Assembly: GCA_902464275.1 (NCBI GenBank)
Contig: CABQIK010000007.1
Span: 8,613-72,612 of the forward strand
Origin: an uncultured Alphaproteobacteria bacterium
GTDB lineage: Bacteria; Pseudomonadota; Alphaproteobacteria; RF32; CAG-239
Direction: 5' to 3'
DNA: 64,000 nucleotides
The notes beneath the pieces are model-generated. The model ran no database searches and had not been told where the DNA came from. It saw only the letters and a list, made by a program, of their open reading frames with translations. The translations under genes and the position numbers were made by a program. Positions 18,306-64,000 of the stretch are shown piece by piece (the first letter of the stretch is position 1; each line of letters starts with the position of its first letter).

Positions 18306-20684
18306 ATGACAAAAAGAATGTTGATTGATGACACGCAGCCTGAAGAAACCCGCGTGGTTATTATTGACGGGAACAAAGTTGAAGATGTTGAGTTTGAATC
18401 AAGCTCCCGCAAACAAATAAAAGGCAATATTTATACCGCCAAAGTTATCAGAGTTGAACCCTCGCTGCAAGCCGCCTTTGTTGATTACGGCGGCAACCGC
18501 CACGGATTTTTGGCCTTTGGCGAAATTCACCCTGATTATTACAATGCCTCACCCGAGTTGTTAGAAGCTGTTGACCGCGAGGTTGATGAAATTATTGAGC
18601 GCAAAAAACAATACATTAAAGAGCGTGAAGAACAACGCGAGCGTATCCGCGCTGAAAAACAAGCCGCTTATGAAGCTCGCAAACGTGAAGAAGAAGCCCG
18701 CTTGGCCGAAGAGGCGCGCTTGGCTGAAGAAGCCCGTTTGGCTGAAGAAGCCGCCGCGGCAGCTGCCGAACCGGAAACTTCTGCCGAACCTGTAACTGAA
18801 ACTGCCGAACCGGCTGCCGAGCCTGCGGTTAAACCCAAAAGAAAATACACCCGCCGCAAGCCGTTGAAGAAAAAGACCGAGGCCGAAACTCCGGCTGAAG
18901 AAACCGCCGAAAAAACTGAAGAACCGCAAGAAGAGCTTAAAGTTTTATCCGCCGATTCTGATAACAATGACGCGGTTATTTGCGATGACTGCTCTGACGA
19001 TGAAAACGATTCTTTCGATTCTGAATCTGAATATGATGCTGCCGACAATGACGATGATGATTCCGATGAAGATTTTGAATTGCAACGCAAACTTTTACGC
19101 GCTCGCAAACTTTATCATTACAGCACTATTCAAGACGTTATCAAAGAAGGTCAAACCCTGCTTATTCAGGTGGTAAAAGAAGAACGCGGCAATAAAGGCG
19201 CCGCCTGCACCACTTATTTATCTTTGGCCGGCAAATATTGCGTATTAATGCCCAATCGTATTAAAAGCGGCGGCGTTTCGCGCAAAATCACCAATGCGGC
19301 TGACCGCAAGCGCTTAAAAGAGATTATGAAAGAACTTCCTTTAACTGCCAACATGTCCATGATTATCCGCACCGCCGGCGAAGATAAAACCAAGGCCGAT
19401 ATTGTTCGCGATTACAATTACTTGATTCGTACATGGAATCACATTCGCTTAAACGCTCTTAAAAACAAAGTTCCGAGCCTTATTTATGAAGAAGGCGACT
19501 TAATCAAACGTGCTTTGCGCGATATGTACACCAAAGACATTGCCGAAGTTATTGTTGACGGCAACGAGGCTTATAAAGCCGCCCGCGATTTTGTTAAAAT
19601 TTTATCGCCGAGCAGTCTAAAGAAAATTAAGTGCCGCAAGCCTAACGAAATGCCTGTATTCCAACGTTTTCAAATTGAATCGCAGCTTGATAAACTTCAT
19701 AGCCCGATTGTTCAGCTTGAATCCGGCGGTTATTTAGTTATTAACCCGACCGAGGCTTTGGTATCAATAGATGTTAACTCCGGCCGCGCCACCAAAGAAA
19801 AAGACATTGAAGAAACTGCCTTAAAGACCAATTTGGAAGCTGCCGATGAAATTGCCAAACAGTTGCGCATGCGTAATCTTGCCGGTTTGGTGGTTATTGA
19901 CTTTATTGATATGGACGAACCCAAAAACAATGCCGCGGTTGAAAAACGTATGAAAGACGCGCTCAAAAACGACCGCTCGCGCATTCAGGTTGCCAAAATG
20001 AGTTGTTTCGGCCTGCTTGAGCTCTCCCGTCAACGCATGCACTCTTCATTTATTGAAAGCAACTATCAACCCTGCCCGTTCTGTCATGGCCAAGGCGTTA
20101 TCCGCACCACGGAATCCGGAGCCATGCTTATTTTGCGCGCCATTGAAGAAGAGGGTGTTAAAAACCGCTCATCACGCATTACGGTTTTTGTTCCGACTGA
20201 AACCGCTATTTATCTGCTTAACCAAAAGCGCCAAAATTTGTGCGATTTGGAAAGCCGATACAAAATGTCAGTCGTAATTTCTGCCGATAGCGAAATTAAA
20301 AATATTTCTGACTATCGCATTGAGCGCGTTCGCCAAACCAAACCGGCCGAAGAAGATGAAAACGCTCCGATGACCGCATATTCTGAAGCGGAAGAATTTT
20401 CTGAAGCCGAAGAAGATGACGCTGAAGAAGCTCCTGAAAATGATAACATGCCGGAACCTTCCGATGAAGAAAATGATGATCGCGATAACCGTTATAATCG
20501 CCGTTTTCACGGACGCCGCAATCGCTATGACCGTCGCCGCGGTAAATTCGGGCGCCGCGATTACAACAATCGCGATGACTACCGCCAACGCTACAATAAT
20601 GCCGCTGAAACTCCCGCTCCGGTCAATACCGAAGAACCTAAAAAAGAAGGCAAAGTTGCATGGTGGAGAAAATTAATCGGTTAA
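18306..20684 (+). CDS. rne: ribonuclease E
   Basis: S1 domain N-terminus (KGNIYTAKVIRVEPSLQAAFVDYG) and Rne catalytic core. Acidic/Arg-rich C-terminal scaffold. Confidence 0.9.
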   Translation: MTKRMLIDDTQPEETRVVIIDGNKVEDVEFESSSRKQIKGNIYTAKVIRVEPSLQAAFVDYGGNRHGFLAFGEIHPDYYNASPELLEAVDREVDEIIERKKQYIKEREEQRERIRAEKQAAYEARKREEEARLAEEARLAEEARLAEEAAAAAAEPETSAEPVTETAEPAAEPAVKPKRKYTRRKPLKKKTEAETPAEETAEKTEEPQEELKVLSADSDNNDAVICDDCSDDENDSFDSESEYDAADNDDDDSDEDFELQRKLLRARKLYHYSTIQDVIKEGQTLLIQVVKEERGNKGAACTTYLSLAGKYCVLMPNRIKSGGVSRKITNAADRKRLKEIMKELPLTANMSMIIRTAGEDKTKADIVRDYNYLIRTWNHIRLNALKNKVPSLIYEEGDLIKRALRDMYTKDIAEVIVDGNEAYKAARDFVKILSPSSLKKIKCRKPNEMPVFQRFQIESQLDKLHSPIVQLESGGYLVINPTEALVSIDVNSGRATKEKDIEETALKTNLEAADEIAKQLRMRNLAGLVVIDFIDMDEPKNNAAVEKRMKDALKNDRSRIQVAKMSCFGLLELSRQRMHSSFIESNYQPCPFCHGQGVIRTTESGAMLILRAIEEEGVKNRSSRITVFVPTETAIYLLNQKRQNLCDLESRYKMSVVISADSEIKNISDYRIERVRQTKPAEEDENAPMTAYSEAEEFSEAEEDDAEEAPENDNMPEPSDEENDDRDNRYNRRFHGRRNRYDRRRGKFGRRDYNNRDDYRQRYNNAAETPAPVNTEEPKKEGKVAWWRKLIG
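18697..18762 (+). repeat. tandem 18-nt coding repeats (EEARLA x3-4) inside rne
   Basis: GAAGAAGCCCGCTTGGCC-like unit repeated. Low-complexity insertion in the S1 region. Confidence 0.7.
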
Positions 20685-23025: not shown

Positions 23026-23094
23026 CTGCTCCTCCTTAAACTCAATATAAGCAAGCAGACAAGCAATTTAAATTAAACTAACGTTTACCCCGCA

Positions 23095-23676
23095 TTAGAA
23101 ATCAGCTTTTATCTTTTCAGTCAATTTATATATTCCGGCAAATTTTGAGGCATTATATTCCGGCTCGCCACTTAATGATATTTCCCATTGACGGGCTTTT
23201 TTAACAGCATGTTCATAATTCGGCATTTTGGCTAAATCAAAATAAGGGTTCCTATCATGTTTATAAAAAAGCATAATGCTTTCTAATCTTGATTGCGCTT
23301 CGCCTTGAGAATTTACATTGTCAATATCATAATGGAGCAACGGCCAAATTTCTATACATGGTTTCATATATGCCATATAAATATTCATACCGCTTTGCCT
23401 GATTATGTCAATAGCCTCTCTAACTTCAGAATCTCTTCCGTCATGGTCAAAGATAACCCATATTTCACTTTTTGGCATCTTTAAATCATTATATCTTCTT
23501 ACAGCTTCTCTTGCTAACGTAACCGGATTTTGATTTATATGAATTTTATTCAATTTTACCAACGAAGTTTTCTTTTGTTGCTGAATAAATTTTTGCAGAT
23601 AATCCAATTCGGTTTTACCCTCATAAAAAAGTTGAATTACCAGTTTAAATTCTGAACGTTTACCGAAATCACTCAT
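23095..23676 (-). CDS. RloB-like / TOPRIM-domain protein (AbiLii-like), probable nuclease partner
   Basis: TOPRIM signature: conserved Glu in FYEGKTE and DxD in VIFDHDGRD. About 193 aa. The ATG at 23676 overlaps the upstream ATPase stop by 8 nt (ATGAGTGA). AT-rich. Confidence 0.65.
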   Translation of the reverse strand: MSDFGKRSEFKLVIQLFYEGKTELDYLQKFIQQQKKTSLVKLNKIHINQNPVTLAREAVRRYNDLKMPKSEIWVIFDHDGRDSEVREAIDIIRQSGMNIYMAYMKPCIEIWPLLHYDIDNVNSQGEAQSRLESIMLFYKHDRNPYFDLAKMPNYEHAVKKARQWEISLSGEPEYNASKFAGIYKLTEKIKADF

Positions 23677-24955
23677 TATTGAAGCCCCCAATCATAGGAA
23701 TTGCTCCGTATTTACCTTGCATATAACCTTTTTGCAGATTTTTATCAAAGCGAGGAGTAAATTGATATAGTGAATACAAATCAGAGGATCCGTCTTGGCG
23801 TTTTTCTGTAAACCAAATTTCATCGGTACGCCAAATCTCATTAGTCATTAAATTTAAATCATGTAAAGTAACAATAAGCTGCCCTTTATTTTTATCATTT
23901 TCCAAATGTTCTTGAATTAAAAACTTGCTCAAAAACGGATGCAACCGACAATCAAGCTCGTCTATAATCAAACATGTATTGGAATCTCTGAGCAAATAAA
24001 ATGACAACGCCAAATCTATTAAGCGTTTTGTTCCATCAGATTCTTCTCCGATTTTAAACCTTACATCATTATGAATGGTTCTTAAAGCAAGCCCTTTTTT
24101 TCCACCAGGCGTTATACTGATTGCAACAACATCTCCTTCTGTTGACTTAGAAAACAATGTGCCGTAACCTTGTTTTTGCCCTGATGCCAGTGCCTCTTTA
24201 TAAAAATATTCCGTTTCATTATTTGAAAGTTTAATCCATTGTATATCAGAAATTCCTACATCCGCCGTTCTTAACAACCGTCTTAAAAAATCTTGAAATT
24301 CCTGTTGGTTAAAAAACATTCCGAAAATAACCGGATTTACTAAACTATTGGGCGATGTTATTACCAACATTTCAAAAAATTTTAAAACATCTGTTATATA
24401 TTTTGCTCCCGATATTTTAGCGGCATTTTCTATTATTCCGTCTTGGCGAAGTTTAAATAAAAATGTGGTTACCGATTGAAATGTGCGGTTTTTATACCAA
24501 TCTTCACTTTTACTTAACGCTCCATGCAATTCAATTTCAGACAAACGTCTGCTAAACAACGGCTTTATCTCTCCGCTTTTTTGTAATATTGATAATTGCT
24601 CAAACGGAATTTGAATTCCGTTTGTAACCAACTTATACCTATACGCCGTTCCATTAATTTGAAAATCTATTTCAAATTCAGTATTAAATATTTTTTTTGC
24701 CAATTTAAACTGATGCGACAAAACAAAAGCTGTGCTATCAGACATAACACACCAAAACAAGGCTTCTAACGCATGTACAAAATTAGATTTTCCAGACGCG
24801 TTTGCCCCATAAATAGCAGCGCCTTTTAACGCGCTGAAAGGCTTGCCGTCAAGCACATGTTTTTTATGTTGTTTTGATATTTTCCCCGGAAATAATGAAA
24901 AAGTCGCTGTTTCATTAAATGAAGCAAAATTTGATACAGAAAAATTCAAAAGCAT
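23669..24955 (-). CDS. ABC-type AAA ATPase (AAA_21/AAA_15-like; AbiLi/RloA/AriA-like)
   Basis: Walker A GANASGKSN near the N-terminus, Walker B LIIDELD, and an H-loop TLHD at the C-terminus, with a long inserted middle domain. It is co-oriented and overlaps the TOPRIM gene. Confidence 0.7.
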   Translation of the reverse strand: MLLNFSVSNFASFNETATFSLFPGKISKQHKKHVLDGKPFSALKGAAIYGANASGKSNFVHALEALFWCVMSDSTAFVLSHQFKLAKKIFNTEFEIDFQINGTAYRYKLVTNGIQIPFEQLSILQKSGEIKPLFSRRLSEIELHGALSKSEDWYKNRTFQSVTTFLFKLRQDGIIENAAKISGAKYITDVLKFFEMLVITSPNSLVNPVIFGMFFNQQEFQDFLRRLLRTADVGISDIQWIKLSNNETEYFYKEALASGQKQGYGTLFSKSTEGDVVAISITPGGKKGLALRTIHNDVRFKIGEESDGTKRLIDLALSFYLLRDSNTCLIIDELDCRLHPFLSKFLIQEHLENDKNKGQLIVTLHDLNLMTNEIWRTDEIWFTEKRQDGSSDLYSLYQFTPRFDKNLQKGYMQGKYGAIPMIGGFNNE

Positions 24956-25174
24956 AGTTTATTCTCCGTTTTTTATCATATTAAATATGCATATATGCTA
25001 TTTTGGGCAAAAAATCAACAGATTTTGTGAAAAAATCACATAATATAACTTCATACATTATAAATTATGCAAACTATCAGCTTCTAAATTAACTCTTGCA
25101 CTTTAATATTATCCTTTTATAAATAAATTTACGCTATGATTATGCAAAATGTAAAATTTAACAAAGGATAAGTT

Positions 25175-40972: not shown

Positions 40973-42025
40973 ATGCCTAATATGAGTGATATTATCATTA
41001 CACCTGATATACTGCGAAGCATATCTGAAATAGATACATTTAAAGGATCTTGGAACAGTGGCGGTATTAAAATTGCGCCTGAACAATTAAAAACGATGAA
41101 AAGAATTGCCACGATTGAATCCATTGGTTCCTCAAATCGTATTGAAGGCAATAAATTAAATGATATTGATGTTGAAACCATATTTAACAACATCAATAAA
41201 AAATCATTTCAAACTCGTGATGAACAAGAAGTTGCCGGTTATGCTGATTTATTAGCTACAATATTTGACAATTATCAAAACATTCCATTATCGGAAAATT
41301 ATATCAGACAGCTTCATAAAATTTTATTAAACTATTCTGATAAAGATGAACGCCACAGAGGAGAATATAAAAAAGATTCAAACAGAGTTGCCGCATTTGA
41401 TGCAAATGGTCATGAAATCGGTACTATTTTTGAAACGGCCACTCCTTTTGACACACCACGCTTGATGCAAGAATTGATTGATTGGACCAACAGAAATTTC
41501 AATGATGGATATTTTCATCCGATAATAACTATTGGCGTATTTATTGTCCGCTTCTTGGCAATACACCCGTTTACTGACGGCAACGGTCGTATGTCAAGAG
41601 CATTAACAACAATGTTATTACTGCAAAACGGCTACAATTACATGCCTTACGCTTCTATGGAATCTGTTATTGAAGCAAGCAAAGATTTATATTATAGGGC
41701 ATTAAGAGCAACCCAAAAAACTATTTGGAATGATAAAGTAAATTACGAGCCTTGGTTAACTTTCTTTGTAACATCATTGCAAAAACAAAAACGCCATTTG
41801 GAATATAAAATAAAAAAATCATCTGATACAATAAGATACAATAAAACAGAACAAAGCATAATAAATTTATTTGATATAAAATCAAATTGGTCTGTTTTGG
41901 AAATATCTGAAACATTAGGTAAAAACAACGAGACAGTTAAAAAGAATGTTCAGAATCTTGTAAAAAAAGACATTTTAGAAAAACAAGGGACAACAAAAGG
42001 AACCTATTATATTTTGAAAAAATAA
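40973..42025 (+). CDS. Fic family protein (AMPylator-like) with C-terminal wHTH-like region
   Basis: Canonical Fic motif HPFTDGNGRMSR. AT-rich codon usage relative to neighbouring core genes. Confidence 0.85.
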   Translation: MPNMSDIIITPDILRSISEIDTFKGSWNSGGIKIAPEQLKTMKRIATIESIGSSNRIEGNKLNDIDVETIFNNINKKSFQTRDEQEVAGYADLLATIFDNYQNIPLSENYIRQLHKILLNYSDKDERHRGEYKKDSNRVAAFDANGHEIGTIFETATPFDTPRLMQELIDWTNRNFNDGYFHPIITIGVFIVRFLAIHPFTDGNGRMSRALTTMLLLQNGYNYMPYASMESVIEASKDLYYRALRATQKTIWNDKVNYEPWLTFFVTSLQKQKRHLEYKIKKSSDTIRYNKTEQSIINLFDIKSNWSVLEISETLGKNNETVKKNVQNLVKKDILEKQGTTKGTYYILKK

Positions 42026-42917: not shown

Positions 42918-42993
42918 TGGTGGAGCTGAGGGGAATCGAACCCCTGACCTCCTCAATGCCATTGAGGCGCTCTCCCAACTGAGCTACAACCCC
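42918..42993 (-). tRNA. tRNA-Ala (anticodon GGC)
   Basis: Minus-strand sequence GGGGTTGTAGCTCAGTTGGGAGAGCGCCTCAATGGCATTGAGGAGGTCAGGGGTTCGATTCCCCTCAGCTCCACCA. G3:U70 Ala identity pair, anticodon loop AUGGCAU, encoded CCA. A hairpin plus T-run terminator lies downstream on the minus strand. Confidence 0.9.
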
Positions 42994-61943: not shown

Positions 61944-62020
<77 letters not shown>

Positions 62021-62178
62021 ATAAAACTAAAATACGCCCGTTCGTAAGAATGGGTGTGTTTTTGTTTTAAATGTGTTGCAAGGAGTTGAACCAACGAAAA
62101 AAGTTGGTTCACTACAAGCGAAAGGCAGGAGCAACATTAGCCGATTAGTACAGCATAATTACATCAACCGGAGAAAAA

Positions 62179-62670
62179 ATGAATAATATAAGAAAAGCCA
62201 CAATCAATGATGCTTCAATTATTGCAGAGATAAGTATTGATAGTTGGAAAAGTGCTTATAAAGGGCTCTTGCCGCCCAAATTGTTGCTAAACAGAAAAGC
62301 CGATAAAAAAAGAATAACCGCTTGGAAAGATAATATCGCTAATAGCGATTATACCGTATTGGTTTATGAACAAAACAAAGTTTGCGGCTATTTATGGGCA
62401 GGTAAAAAAAGAGATAAAATTGATATTCCTTATGAAATATATGCCATATACGTTAGTCCGCAATACCAAAGATTAGGGATTGGACAAGCTCTAATCAATG
62501 AATATAAAAAATTAATCAACAATCAGCCGTTTTATTTATATATGTTAAAAGGGAATGTTCCCGCCTCTGCTTTTTATAAAAAGATGGGAGGAAAAGAAAA
62601 CGTATATTACAATAAAAAAATTTCTGTTAACGAATATACCATTGAAGAAGAAATTTATATTTTTGAGTAA
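62179..62670 (+). CDS. GNAT family N-acetyltransferase
   Basis: 163 aa. Acetyl-CoA binding motif QRLGIGQALI. Very AT-rich. Confidence 0.7.
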   Translation: MNNIRKATINDASIIAEISIDSWKSAYKGLLPPKLLLNRKADKKRITAWKDNIANSDYTVLVYEQNKVCGYLWAGKKRDKIDIPYEIYAIYVSPQYQRLGIGQALINEYKKLINNQPFYLYMLKGNVPASAFYKKMGGKENVYYNKKISVNEYTIEEEIYIFE

Positions 62671-62706
62671 TAAAAATTCGTTTATTGATGGCAAAAAGCG
62701 CTATAT

Positions 62707-63429
62707 CTATTTTATGGTAATGCTTGGATTATCTTCTTGGTTTGCAATTATTATTCTCCTGCCACCGGAAAAATACATAATAAACTTTTCCAAATCATAA
62801 TCATCTTCATATGAATCAACAACAAGTGATATATCTTCTAACTCTGAATCAATCATAAAATCAAAGATATGAGAAATATCGTTATATACGTTAGTATCAT
62901 TATAACCGGGTTTCCATTCCGTAATATTAACATCTTTGGTTGAAAAAAGATTTAAATAATTATGGCTGTTTAATGATACATCATATTGATATGAGCCATA
63001 AATTTTAATTTTTAAAAACTGATTATCAAAAACAAAACCGAAATCTTCAAAATAAACCTTCCGATAATTATCAAACATAACCGGACAATCGCTTGTAAAT
63101 TCAGTATGCCAAATGCTTTTATTAACAATGTATTTTAGTTTTTTCCCGACTAAAGCTTGTTTTAATTCAGGCAAAACATTTTCCAATTCTCTTGCATCAG
63201 CAGATACATCTTTTTTGAGCGGAACATCTATCTTTTTGCTGTCATCAATCTTAATTTCAACACACATATTAAATCCTTTTATGATTGTGCTAATTGTAAA
63301 ACATAAATCTCTCAAACGCAAGAAAATATCTGTAAAGTTATTACCCGACACTTTAATCTGCATGCTGAGTGTATCAGCCACTTGCACAACAAATATAAAC
63401 AGTGATTTTTGCCTTTTATATAAACCCAT
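62707..63429 (-). CDS. hypothetical protein
   Basis: AT-rich ORF between the GNAT gene and the recombinase. The start is uncertain because several in-frame Met codons are present. Confidence 0.35.
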   Translation of the reverse strand: MGLYKRQKSLFIFVVQVADTLSMQIKVSGNNFTDIFLRLRDLCFTISTIIKGFNMCVEIKIDDSKKIDVPLKKDVSADARELENVLPELKQALVGKKLKYIVNKSIWHTEFTSDCPVMFDNYRKVYFEDFGFVFDNQFLKIKIYGSYQYDVSLNSHNYLNLFSTKDVNITEWKPGYNDTNVYNDISHIFDFMIDSELEDISLVVDSYEDDYDLEKFIMYFSGGRRIIIANQEDNPSITIK

Positions 63430-63518
63430 CTATACCGATTACACCAACGACACTCCCGAAACCATCAGGCAAATTGATAGAAATAATATTGTTTATGAGG
63501 AAATGTGCGAGGAATAAA

Positions 63519-64000
63519 TTATTCAGTTAAGATTACATTATTAATAAAATTTCGCACGGTTTCTCTGTCTACGTGTAATTTTTTGGCAATAGCTGTTTTG
63601 CTTTCTCCGTTAGCTAACAACTTTTGTATAATAGATTCCTTGCCTGAAAGTTTTAAATATGAGCTTTTTGTGCCATAAGGTCTACCAAGAATTTTCCCGG
63701 AAGCACGTCTCGCGGCTAAAGCTTCTTTTGTGCGCTGACTTATTAAATTTCGCTCTAATTCAGCTGTTAGCCCAAATGCAAAAGCTAATATTTTCCCCTG
63801 AATTCCTGCATCTAAGCGATAATTGTCTTTTATGGTCCAAATGTTAGCACCGATGTTCATACAATGGTTTAATATTCCCATTATTTGTAATAAATCTCTT
63901 CCCAATCTAGACAATTCACTGGTAATAAGCATATCTCCTTTTTTAATCCTTTTTATAAGTTTGCCTAATTTCCTTTTTTGTAAATCTTGGCGAGAGCTGA
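63519..64000 (-). mobile_element. serine recombinase (resolvase/invertase family), N-terminus beyond window end
   Basis: The frame stays open upstream of the track start and reads ...KKGDMLITSELSRLGRD (resolvase catalytic-domain motif). It also has ELERNLISQRTKEALAARRASGKILGRP and a C-terminal HTH KTAIAKKLHVDRETVRNF. Confidence 0.8.

Follow-up and report, generated by a model that had tools for sequence, protein, structure and literature searches.

A pair of overlapping genes, clearly richer in A and T than its neighbours and lying among housekeeping genes, raises the question of whether it belongs to the core genome or was brought in as a defence system and, if so, of which family and acting by which mechanism. 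We addressed this question within the window, i.e. the whole stretch of 64,000 nt of DNA that was analysed. An earlier sequence-only reading had described two co-oriented genes on the minus strand with an 8-nt overlap, and both were found exactly where it had placed them:

23669..24955, minus strand: abiLi, encoding an ATPase of 428 aa with an ATG start (ORF list and HMM).
23095..23676, minus strand: abiLii, encoding, with the ATG at 23676 as start, an RloB-family protein of 193 aa (ORF list and HMM).
23669..23676, minus strand: 8-nt gene overlap, ATGAGTGA, comprising the abiLii ATG and the abiLi TGA (sequence).
24964..24967, minus strand: ribosome-binding site GGAG, 8 nt 5' of the abiLi ATG (sequence).

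The abiLii reading frame opens at 23095-23691 on the minus strand and would give 198 aa if a TTG start were used; the ATG start, i.e. the 193-aa form, is the choice of independent gene callers on metagenome contigs. The 8-nt overlap, which implies translational coupling, is identical in all close homologue loci, and nearly all loci of the wider family have an overlap or a gap of at most 13 nt at this junction. A chance pair of ORFs is ruled out by the HMM scores of the two products (253 bits for AbiLi and 71 bits for RloB). The dN/dS ratios (0.1-0.2 overall for both genes, 0.10-0.18 for abiLi, with dS of at least 0.8) indicate that purifying selection acts on abiLi and abiLii. No terminator was found 3' of abiLii, and an Rfam scan of the 20-28 kb region returned no match at E values up to 0.1.

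The larger protein had been assigned the split ABC/AAA_21 architecture, and profile searches bore this out. Its best match among the PADLOC models was AbiLi (PDLC02335; 1e-75, 253 bits), by 50 orders of magnitude, ahead of AriA (1.6e-23 and 4.4e-10), PtuA (6e-6) and GajA (2.4e-5). It also matched AAA_21 (2.6e-23, 84 bits for a cut-off of 27) and AAA_15 (35.7 bits for a cut-off of 32.1) in Pfam. The ATPase motifs were located and their conservation was assessed on an alignment of 51 homologues:

24785..24808, minus strand: Walker A / P-loop G50-A-N-A-S-G-K-S57, with G50, N52, G55 and K56 invariant in the 51-sequence alignment.
24023..24043, minus strand: ABC signature-like motif E305-S-D-G-T-K-R311, with S306 and G308 invariant and E305 and T309 at least 90 % conserved.
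23951..23971, minus strand: Walker B and D-loop L-I-I-D332-E333-L-D335, with D332 and E333 invariant.
23861..23863, minus strand: H-loop histidine H365, invariant in the alignment.

Walker A, Walker B and the H-loop, all three of which had been picked out by eye, are thus present; their placement at the extreme C-terminus had to be corrected, as residues 330-365 of 428 fall in the C-terminal quarter. The predicted structure of AbiLi (AF2 pLDDT 90.9) matched the ATPase heads of Rad50, SMC, PtuA and OLD at E~1e-10 in Foldseek. The structural neighbours with a nuclease function were the OLD-family enzymes 6p74, 6nk8 and 8u7i. By sequence profile, the closest solved relatives were the ATPase of retron Ec83 (2e-9) and PtuA (8e-6); AriA chains of the PDB matched at 1.4e-4, with a similarity confined to the C-terminal motifs. 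AbiLi is an ABC-type, Rad50/SMC-head-like ATPase that presumably serves as sensor or regulator.

The smaller protein had been likened to RloB/AbiLii on account of the segments FYEGKTE and VIFDHDGRD. Both motifs are present and the likeness holds, the protein matching Pfam RloB (PF13707) over its full length (1.9e-19, 71.1 bits for a cut-off of 31.5, profile positions 3-195 of 195) and the PADLOC AbiLii model (2.9e-14). Conservation was scored among 64 diverse RloB proteins:

23608..23622, minus strand: Toprim-type glutamate motif E19-G-K-T-E23 at the C-terminus of strand beta1; G20 and E23 are invariant, and conservation is at least 90 % at E19 and T22.
23440..23448, minus strand: DxD motif D77-H-D79, where strand beta3 ends, with D77 and D79 at least 90 % conserved.
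23350..23352, minus strand: E109, in a P-C-x-E-I-W motif after strand beta4, invariant and a candidate additional metal ligand.

Foldseek of AbiLii against the PDB gave nothing at an E value of 1e-3 or better, and a PDB profile search with the RloB alignment gave no match. When the 64 RloB proteins were compared with P2 Old and GajA by hhalign, the EGxTE motif alone was aligned, at 2 % probability, in a test that is weak because the templates were single sequences; EGKTE of AbiLii was thereby paired, weakly, with VEG-KTE of P2 Old and VEG-ITE of GajA. The Toprim assignment of RloB-type proteins is supported by the literature, and AbiLii is presumed to be a Toprim-type, metal-dependent nuclease effector, as predicted from these motifs.

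Taken as a pair, both proteins matched Pfam and PADLOC models (AbiLi at 1e-75 and RloB at 1.9e-19), and the pair very probably belongs to the AbiL family. An AbiLi-type ATPase gene comes first and an RloB-family gene second in a co-oriented bicistron, with the acidic and ATPase motifs intact, and the RloB gene lies directly downstream of the ATPase gene in 139 of the 150 wider relatives (93 %). The subfamily, which the sequence-only reading had left undecided, is AbiL and not PARIS, Septu or Gabija. As regards PARIS, the ATPase is not of the AriA type and the effector is not a DUF4435 protein, neither member of the pair having a Pfam match to DUF4435 (PF14491) at E values up to 1 or a PADLOC match to AriB. 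As regards OLD class 1 and Gabija, the ATPase and the effector are encoded by two separate ORFs and no helicase gene occurs within 10 kb; as regards Septu, the partner is RloB, without an HNH domain. The RloB family is shared with RloAB, but no hsd gene is found within 10 kb. The AbiL class is already known to standard defence-finding tools, and since these tools recognise its family, the existence of the cassette is in itself unsurprising.

How the pair came to its present position was assessed by megablast against three conspecific contigs with an empty site (L098, L099 and L101) and against a sister species (L015), which delimited one feature:

23093..25086, minus strand: inserted segment of 1,994 nt, GC 0.33, holding the whole cassette (megablast against empty-site contigs).

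The insert substitutes for 5 nt, ATTGC, of the empty site. The flanks of the empty-site conspecific contigs are 98.4-99.6 % identical to those of the window, 19 of the sampled conspecific contigs carry the cassette and 4 do not, the site is empty in the sister species, and the cassette is absent at this locus from all 80 related species. Strains with the cassette occur, for example, in the metagenome ERZ1034837, and strains without it in ERZ27281715 and ERZ15610012. As conspecific strains and the sister species have an empty site, the insertion is recent and strain-variable. The horizontal acquisition into a housekeeping neighbourhood that had been suggested is hence demonstrated, and the synteny comparison excludes a pair present in all relatives with a core-like composition; the notion of an old fixed insertion has to be abandoned, given the polymorphism among strains with nearly identical flanks. 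The AT-richness that had drawn attention to the pair was also found (GC 0.32-0.34 between 23000 and 25000, compared with 0.43-0.46 on either side and a mean of 0.42 over the window), as were the neighbours, which according to their Pfam labels are RNase HII (rnhB) and a rhodanese on one side and a semialdehyde dehydrogenase (asd-like) on the other. Neither a flanking integrase nor meaningful flanking repeats were found, in agreement with the initial description, and the insert showed no target-site duplication or terminal inverted repeats, only short matches at chance level. Among these, a TTAGAA/TTCTAA inversion (5-6 nt) and the 8-mer AAGCTGAT, seen close to the two ends of the insert, were put down to chance. 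The position upstream of asd was also considered as a defence hotspot and rejected: other genes occupy it in the 79 other related species, none with AbiL there, and in L016 it holds rplM-rpsI and a gene for a sulfatase-like membrane protein. The locus is a very clean natural example of a minimal defence unit (a promoter and two genes, without recombinase, repeats or target duplication) entering an intergenic region of the core genome; both the filled and the empty form of the site can be read at nucleotide resolution, the empty one from conspecific strains as well as from the sister species.

These data bear directly on the view that the pair is a housekeeping ATPase-nuclease couple of the core genome, e.g. 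for DNA repair of the SbcCD/RecF type, to which the Rad50/SMC-like fold of the ATPase and the surrounding housekeeping genes would lend some colour. The cassette is missing at the locus from conspecific strains and related species alike, its composition is foreign to the host, its homologues turn up in various unrelated settings, prophages and plasmids among them, and its best HMM matches are defence models, no meaningful NCBIfam match and no housekeeping family having been obtained for either protein. The presence/absence polymorphism effectively refutes this view, to which we give next to no credence.

Elsewhere, further copies of the cassette have been inserted on their own between housekeeping genes, and others lie in defence islands and within a prophage; neighbours at these sites include GmrSD, Gabija, type I R-M, MmeI, AbiE and HNH genes. 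The prophage copy adjoins the terminase, and a relative sits in a P2-like Klebsiella phage, at its old/tin-type hotspot. A total of 259 relatives were found in viral contigs, and the cassette also occurs on many small mobilizable plasmids. The cassette is mobile and tied to defence islands and prophages, and the range of AbiL is extended to uncultured gut Alphaproteobacteria and their prophages. It also supplies the AbiL family with a diverged set of sequences under purifying selection.

Some of these contexts would suit an RloAB-like accessory of restriction-modification, i.e. a pair working only with a type I R-M system, for instance as an anti-anti-restriction back-up. RloB was named from genes within Campylobacter type I R-M loci, a 78%-identical cassette adjoins hsdM, hsdS, hsdR and an HNH nuclease gene, and further cassettes lie near HsdR, HsdM or MmeI genes. 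The copy in the window, for its part, has rhodanese, rnhB and asd-like neighbours and no R-M gene within 10 kb on either side, the lactococcal AbiL functions as a two-gene unit, and the other bare insertions likewise stand between housekeeping genes; such an accessory role is very improbable. We regard the locus as a horizontally acquired, strain-variable cassette of the AbiL family that probably serves as a defence against phages.

Upstream of abiLi, comparison of the cassettes pointed to the following regulatory features:

25022..25044, no strand: operator-like palindrome ATTATGTGA-TTTTT-TCACAAAAT (conservation and window scan).
25013..25018, minus strand: -35-like hexamer TTGATT; all cassettes have TTGAYT at 6-7 nt beyond the palindrome.
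24990..24995, minus strand: -10-like hexamer TATATG, imperfect, 17 nt after the -35 (upstream alignment).

In other cassettes the -10 hexamer reads TATATT, TATACT or TAAAAT, and TATATG was missed by a consensus scan because its position 6 is a G. The cassette is predicted to carry its own sigma70-type promoter. The palindrome (ATGTGA-N5-TCACAT, with the core TGTGA-N5-TCACA at 25026-25040) abuts the -35 element, its centre lying some 50 nt 5' of the presumed transcription start. It matches once in the 64-kb window, for 0.01 expected, and in 1.33 Mb of loci it was found exclusively upstream of AbiLi (19/19). It is kept down to 36 % AbiLi identity and is invariant while dS is at least 0.8, i.e. 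while synonymous sites are saturated; across the family the skeleton is TG-NN-A-N5-T-NN-CA, and the half-sites differ between subfamilies.

Several explanations of this element were weighed. A site for CRP or another host regulator was set aside. The spacer is N5, whereas the CRP consensus has N6, and 1.05 Mb of host-lineage DNA showed no excess of near-matches (23, shuffled sequences giving 30-41), a test that is weak because the sample consists mostly of orthologous regions. Nor was there support for an end used in transposition or recombination, of the IS200/IS605-like or attC-like kind: a hairpin is present at one end only and there is no conserved 3' sequence, the conserved unit of the cassette ending at the stop codon. 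For the L009 and L109 loci an insulating terminator is possible, their palindromes having long stems followed by a T-run, but the core sequence itself is invariant beyond mere pairing, which favours recognition by a protein. No helix-turn-helix was recognisable in AbiLi or AbiLii. A rather doubtful proposition is that the palindrome is recognised by the AbiL proteins, the Rad50-like ATPase/Toprim complex binding it as DNA palindrome or hairpin; if true, binding would autoregulate the operon in the manner of toxin-antitoxin (TA) systems and possibly set the resting state of the sensor, and AbiL would be connected with the DNA-hairpin sensing lately proposed for P2 OLD. No mention of the palindrome was found in the AbiL literature covered, to which the original 1999 AbiL paper did not belong. 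The element offers a concrete, testable handle on the regulation of AbiL operons.

An operator-like palindrome at the promoter of a compact, translationally coupled operon is also typical of TA architecture, and the pair could be mainly a TA module, with AbiLii as toxin and AbiLi as antitoxin, autoregulated via the palindrome and persisting by post-segregational or anti-deletion effects. NetFlax has pairs of AAA (node D29) and RloB (node D44) in the type II TA network, together with validated AAA-neutralised TOPRIM_OLD toxins; AbiLii of F. nucleatum is toxic in E. coli (PMC3985639); and bare two-gene insertions and many small mobilizable plasmids would fit such a module. We nevertheless consider it improbable as the main role: there is a strong tendency for the cassette to lie in defence islands, at prophage moron positions and near R-M systems, the prototype AbiL shows a phage-resistance phenotype, and 4 of the 23 conspecific contigs are without the cassette, either lost or not yet spread, so that addiction is not absolute. 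Defence and TA behaviour are moreover compatible, PARIS being both.

For an AbiL-family defence cassette, we propose a mechanism modelled on PARIS and P2 OLD. AbiLi would act as an infection sensor holding the effector in check, and AbiLii as a metal-dependent nuclease with an acidic site formed by E19/E23, D77xD79 and E109. Upon phage infection the ATPase would release or activate the nuclease, whose cleavage of an essential nucleic acid would abort the infection. Defence by abortive infection through the nuclease is, by this analogy, fairly probable. Lactococcus AbiL confers abortive infection (Deng 1999, as cited in PMC13064643). In the work of Dy et al. 2014 (PMC3985639), AbiLii remained toxic when AbiLi was supplied in trans, and no toxicity was seen with the lactococcal pair; the sequester-and-release model may for these reasons not transfer directly. 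No published structure or mechanism of AbiL/RloB was found in the literature.

As to what would be cut, host tRNA is tentatively put forward as the likeliest target, DNA also being considered. The analogy is with PARIS AriB and P2 OLD, tRNases under the control of an ABC ATPase (PMC11464382; 10.64898/2026.07.10.737580). AbiLii could instead be a DNase that nicks or degrades the DNA of the phage or of the host, an activity reported for GajA and, in earlier in-vitro work, for OLD nucleases. The three OLD-family structural neighbours with a nuclease function (6p74, 6nk8 and 8u7i) were first characterised on DNA, the ATPase is of a DNA-binding, Rad50/SMC-like lineage, a conserved DNA palindrome accompanies the cassette, and a review table places AbiL action after phage transcription in Ceduovirus, with the target unnamed. 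Against this, AriB and P2 OLD, the two ABC-ATPase/Toprim systems with in-vivo targets, cleave tRNA and leave DNA intact (PMC11464382; 10.64898/2026.07.10.737580), and we hold a DNase effector to be unlikely.

Among known systems, Septu and retron-associated PtuA provide the closest solved relative of the ATPase, both by profile and by fold; their partner is PtuB, an HNH nuclease, to which a reverse transcriptase may be added, whereas here it is RloB. P2 Old (class 1 OLD) and GajA (Gabija, class 2) have ABC ATPase and Toprim chemistry in common with the cassette, but their two domains are fused, whereas the cassette is split and lacks a helicase, and GajA requires the UvrD-like GajB. Sequence similarity between the OLD Toprim domain and AbiLii is restricted to the EGxTE motif. 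PARIS (AriA/AriB, OLD-family class 4) likewise combines a split ABC ATPase with a Toprim-type nuclease, typically on mobile elements, and is a likely functional analogue in which the ATPase senses and the nuclease kills. It differs by its DUF4435/AriB effector of about 300 aa, against 193 aa for RloB here, and of the two ATPase models, AbiLi and AriA, the former is by far the better fit. PARIS is assembled as AriA6-AriB3. According to Deep et al., AbiL and RloAB are structurally distinct from PARIS (PMC10802264), as is also stated for AbiL in PMC13064643.

RloAB of Campylobacter shares with the cassette the RloB Pfam family and an AAA ATPase partner, but the copy described here lies outside any R-M locus; to our knowledge, RloAB has no demonstrated function. 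The closest counterpart is AbiL itself (Lactococcus lactis pND861; PADLOC/DefenseFinder class), which has the same order of an AAA_21/AAA_15 ATPase gene followed by an RloB gene, coupled and of similar sizes. Members of the AbiL family travel on mobile DNA, and one pair, in a Lactococcus prophage, bears the annotation of abortive phage resistance proteins. The cassette described here is only about 24-26 % identical to the lactococcal-type pair, and whereas the AbiL of pND861 is borne on a plasmid, the present cassette is chromosomal, in an uncultured gut alphaproteobacterium.

The cassette consists of two minus-strand genes, abiLi, encoding an ABC-type ATPase, and abiLii, encoding a small RloB-family protein, which the sequence-only reading had described as overlapping by 8 nt:

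23669-24955, minus strand: abiLi ORF, 428 aa, ATG start
23095-23691, minus strand: abiLii ORF, 198 aa from a TTG start, 193 aa from the ATG at 23676

This overlap (ATGAGTGA) holds given the ATG start of abiLii, and the 193-aa product was also called by gene callers on independent metagenome contigs. The pair has a GC content of 0.32-0.34 vs 0.43-0.46 on both flanks (0.42 for the whole window) and, according to the contig annotations, is bordered by genes for RNase HII (rnhB) and a rhodanese on one side and by a semialdehyde-dehydrogenase gene (asd) and an MscK-like channel gene on the other, so that the AT-richness and the neighbours first described were both borne out; as also stated there, no integrase and no meaningful repeats were found flanking the pair. 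All the quoted motifs (GANASGKSN, IIDELD, the H-loop histidine, FYEGKTE and VIFDHDGRD) were recovered; Walker B and the H-loop, however, lie in the C-terminal quarter of AbiLi (residues 330-365 of 428) and not at its extreme C-terminus.

HMM searches identified the large protein as an ABC-type ATPase, as anticipated (Pfam AAA_21, 2.6e-23; AAA_15 also matched), and settled its subfamily, previously left undecided, as AbiL, the PADLOC AbiLi model matching at 1e-75 with AriA (1.6e-23), PtuA (6e-6) and GajA (2e-5) far behind. Its AlphaFold model (pLDDT 90.9) matches Rad50 and SMC heads, retron/Septu PtuA and the Thermus OLD ATPase, and the nearest solved proteins by sequence profile were the retron Ec83 ATPase (2e-9), then PtuA, AriA (1.4e-4) and OLD (1.5e-3). 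The small protein, expected to be RloB/AbiLii-like, matched Pfam RloB over the full model length (1.9e-19) and PADLOC AbiLii (2.9e-14). In an alignment of 64 diverse RloB proteins, G20, E23 and E109 were invariant, and E19, T22, D77, D79, P106, C107 and W111 were conserved in at least 90 %. The AbiLii model (pLDDT 89.3) is a beta-alpha-beta sandwich with the conserved acidic residues at the C-terminal ends of beta1, beta3 and beta4, i.e. in the Toprim arrangement. Because this model gave no significant Foldseek match, the RloB profile matched no solved structure, and hhalign of the AbiLii family against P2 Old and GajA placed EG-xTE alone on their Toprim glutamate motif with low probability, the predicted Toprim fold leans on motif geometry and published analyses (PMC10440598, PMC13064643, PMC11464382), its structural support being moderate.

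Compared with six diverged cassette copies, both genes are under purifying selection, with dN/dS values of 0.10-0.20 and dS from 0.8 to saturation. AbiLi relatives of 26-59 % identity were examined at another 160 loci, 150 of which had enough downstream sequence; the RloB gene lay directly 3' of the ATPase gene in 139 of these, with an overlap or a gap of at most 13 nt in nearly all RloB-paired loci.

Related species were retrieved using the asd-like gene (80 species, all uncultured gut Alphaproteobacteria MAGs), and none of the 80 carried the AbiL pair at the window position. In the closest relative, a sister species (L015; 96 % identity for asd, 97 % for rhodanese), the gene order is RNase E-M48-rnhB-rhodanese-asd-MscK; a short spacer is present and AbiL is absent. 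Among contigs encoding the identical rhodanese protein, 19 carry the pair and four (L098, L099, L101 and one similar contig) have asd directly adjacent. The insertion junction could be fixed because these empty contigs match the window at 98.4-99.6 % identity in their flanks: in the empty site GTTAATT/ATTGC/CGGGG, the central ATTGC is replaced by 1,994 nt (23093-25086, minus strand), ending 2 nt beyond the abiLii stop codon. Comparison with the empty contigs revealed no target duplication or terminal repeats at the junctions. Empty sites in four conspecific contigs and in L015 prove the suspected horizontal acquisition of the pair into a housekeeping neighbourhood. The insertion is recent and strain-variable; the earlier idea that it is old and fixed finds no support, given empty sites in near-identical contigs.

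The public record of L015 (CAVBCV010000005.1) bears the name 'Lachnospiraceae bacterium', probably through an error of binning or labelling: the contig is fully syntenic with the alphaproteobacterial locus, at a nucleotide identity of 86-90 %. All 80 related species share the asd-MscK pair, and rhodanese-rnhB-M48-RNase E was found upstream of asd only in the window species and L015. In L016-L094, other genes stand upstream of asd (in L016, for example, rplM-rpsI and a gene for a sulfatase-like membrane protein), so that synteny in the lineage breaks at this position.

Copies of the cassette at other loci, by AbiLi identity
81 %: after an ABC-F gene
78 %: adjoining an HNH nuclease gene and hsdMSR
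73 %: island with GmrSD, an integrase fragment and HipA
68 %: bare insertion, ychF / rho
61 %: adjoining GajA/GajB and HsdR
56 %: in a prophage, directly 5' of terminase genes
36-43 %: among R-M, MmeI, Fic, recombinase, AbiE and KAP-NTPase genes, or another bare insertion

AbiL relatives were further found on many small mobilizable enterobacterial plasmids, in the old/tin-type hotspot of a P2-like Klebsiella phage, in a Lactococcus prophage (the pair being annotated as abortive phage resistance proteins) and in a viral contig collection (259 relatives). The cassette is mobile and found in the company of defence genes. Several close copies come from hosts of 30-34 % GC; this matches the cassette and is consistent with a low-GC donor.

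The prophage carrying the 56 %-identical cassette (L013, 1-828 and 8001-9864; another species) adjoins an RNase E gene, its cassette following a Lar-like restriction-alleviation gene just upstream of the terminase genes. RNase E is also near the insertion in the window, which may be a coincidence or a recurrent integration neighbourhood. The island of the 73 % relative (L007/L008, 11716-14553) encodes a 945-aa protein with PHP-phosphoesterase and AAA_21/SMC_N signatures, adjoining DUF2130 and HipA, which may be another ATPase-nuclease defence candidate.

Cassettes share nucleotide homology from ~90-106 nt before the abiLi ATG to the abiLii stop codon, the first conserved element being:

25022-25044 (core 25026-25040): palindrome ATGTGA-N5-TCACAT

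It is followed by 6-7 nt, TTGAYT (-35 of the abiL promoter), a 16-17 nt spacer and a TAtAtT box. The window has a single copy of the core vs 0.01 expected; in 1.33 Mb of fetched loci, the core is confined to sites upstream of AbiLi (19/19). Invariant despite saturated synonymous sites, the palindrome is kept in cassettes down to 36 % protein identity, with outer arms that vary but retain symmetry (equivalent positions in L007, L009, L011, L013, L106-L112, L275 and L276). Across the wider family, sequences upstream of the ATPase are ~28-fold enriched in the exact core, and 34 % of 125 distinct upstream regions contain an odd-centred palindrome of this geometry; the corresponding values are 12 % for dinucleotide shuffles, 6 % for coding controls and 17 % when even-centred palindromes are counted instead. 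Half-sites vary around the skeleton TG-NN-A-N5-T-NN-CA. Near-matches were not enriched in a narrow sample of host-lineage DNA, and the Pfam search detected no helix-turn-helix or other recognisable DNA-binding domain in AbiLi or AbiLii. The palindrome looks like an operator, candidates for the factor acting on it being the AbiL proteins, a host factor or DNA structure.

With the insert in place, the 160-nt intergenic region between the divergent asd and rhodanese genes is left as two remnants, 23026-23092 and 25087-25174. The local effects of the insertion were assessed solely by consensus scans, which gave two promoter-like sites:

25155-25126, minus strand: since the insertion, upstream of the cassette
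23072-23044: still beside the rhodanese gene

These scans found no terminator 3' of abiLii; abiL transcripts therefore probably run on into rhodanese-rnhB, which may be co-transcribed with the defence cassette.

Elsewhere in the window, the gene for a 350-aa Fic-domain protein (40973-42025, plus strand; HPFTDGNGRMSR motif, C-terminal winged-helix-like tail) may be another accessory insertion; GC is low here (0.37), and the gene is flanked by a membrane pyrophosphatase-like gene and tRNA-Ala (42918-42993). At 61944-64000, a stretch of 32 % GC comes after tRNA-Met (61944-62020) and resembles the margin of a genomic island that integrated at this tRNA; its ORFs encode a GNAT-type acetyltransferase-like protein (62179-62670) and, on the minus strand, a resolvase-like protein with an HTH at its C-terminus (63519-63932). 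The RNase E homologue (18306-20684, plus strand), with no Pfam match recorded in the contig annotations, contains a long insertion that is highly acidic and rich in repeats (AEEARLAEEARL repeats, D/E-rich runs); its C-terminal tail is rich in arginine.

AbiL is a two-gene abortive-infection system shown by experiment; reviews and PARIS papers class it among ABC ATPase + Toprim systems and ask for more study of it (PMC13064643; PMC11464382). AbiLii of F. nucleatum is toxic in E. coli and was not neutralised by AbiLi in trans (PMC3985639); NetFlax validated neutralisation of TOPRIM_OLD toxins by AAA. In PARIS, AriB is sequestered by an AriA hexamer and, freed on sensing of a phage protein, cuts tRNA-Lys (PMC11464382); according to a 2026 preprint, P2 OLD is likewise a tRNase, activated by DNA structures (10.64898/2026.07.10.737580). 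The present analysis shows the domain identities, intact motifs, operon coupling, selection and ecology of the pair. For the trigger, control step and substrate of AbiL, we infer, as the best-supported model, a sensor AbiLi and a nuclease AbiLii: AbiLi would sense infection and control the activity of AbiLii, a putative metal-dependent nuclease, whose activation would stop translation or destroy nucleic acid and thereby abort infection.

In every testable feature of class membership, the pair agreed with AbiL. PARIS, OLD/Gabija, Septu and RloAB-in-R-M were rejected as its identity, each being without one defining feature in the window pair: PARIS is set apart by its effector family (here RloB/AbiLii), OLD/Gabija by their fused architecture or helicase partner, Septu by its HNH partner and RloAB-in-R-M by its R-M context. 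The AbiL class was already known and the host group of this copy is new, the clean series of filled and empty sites and the conserved promoter palindrome being of modest added value.
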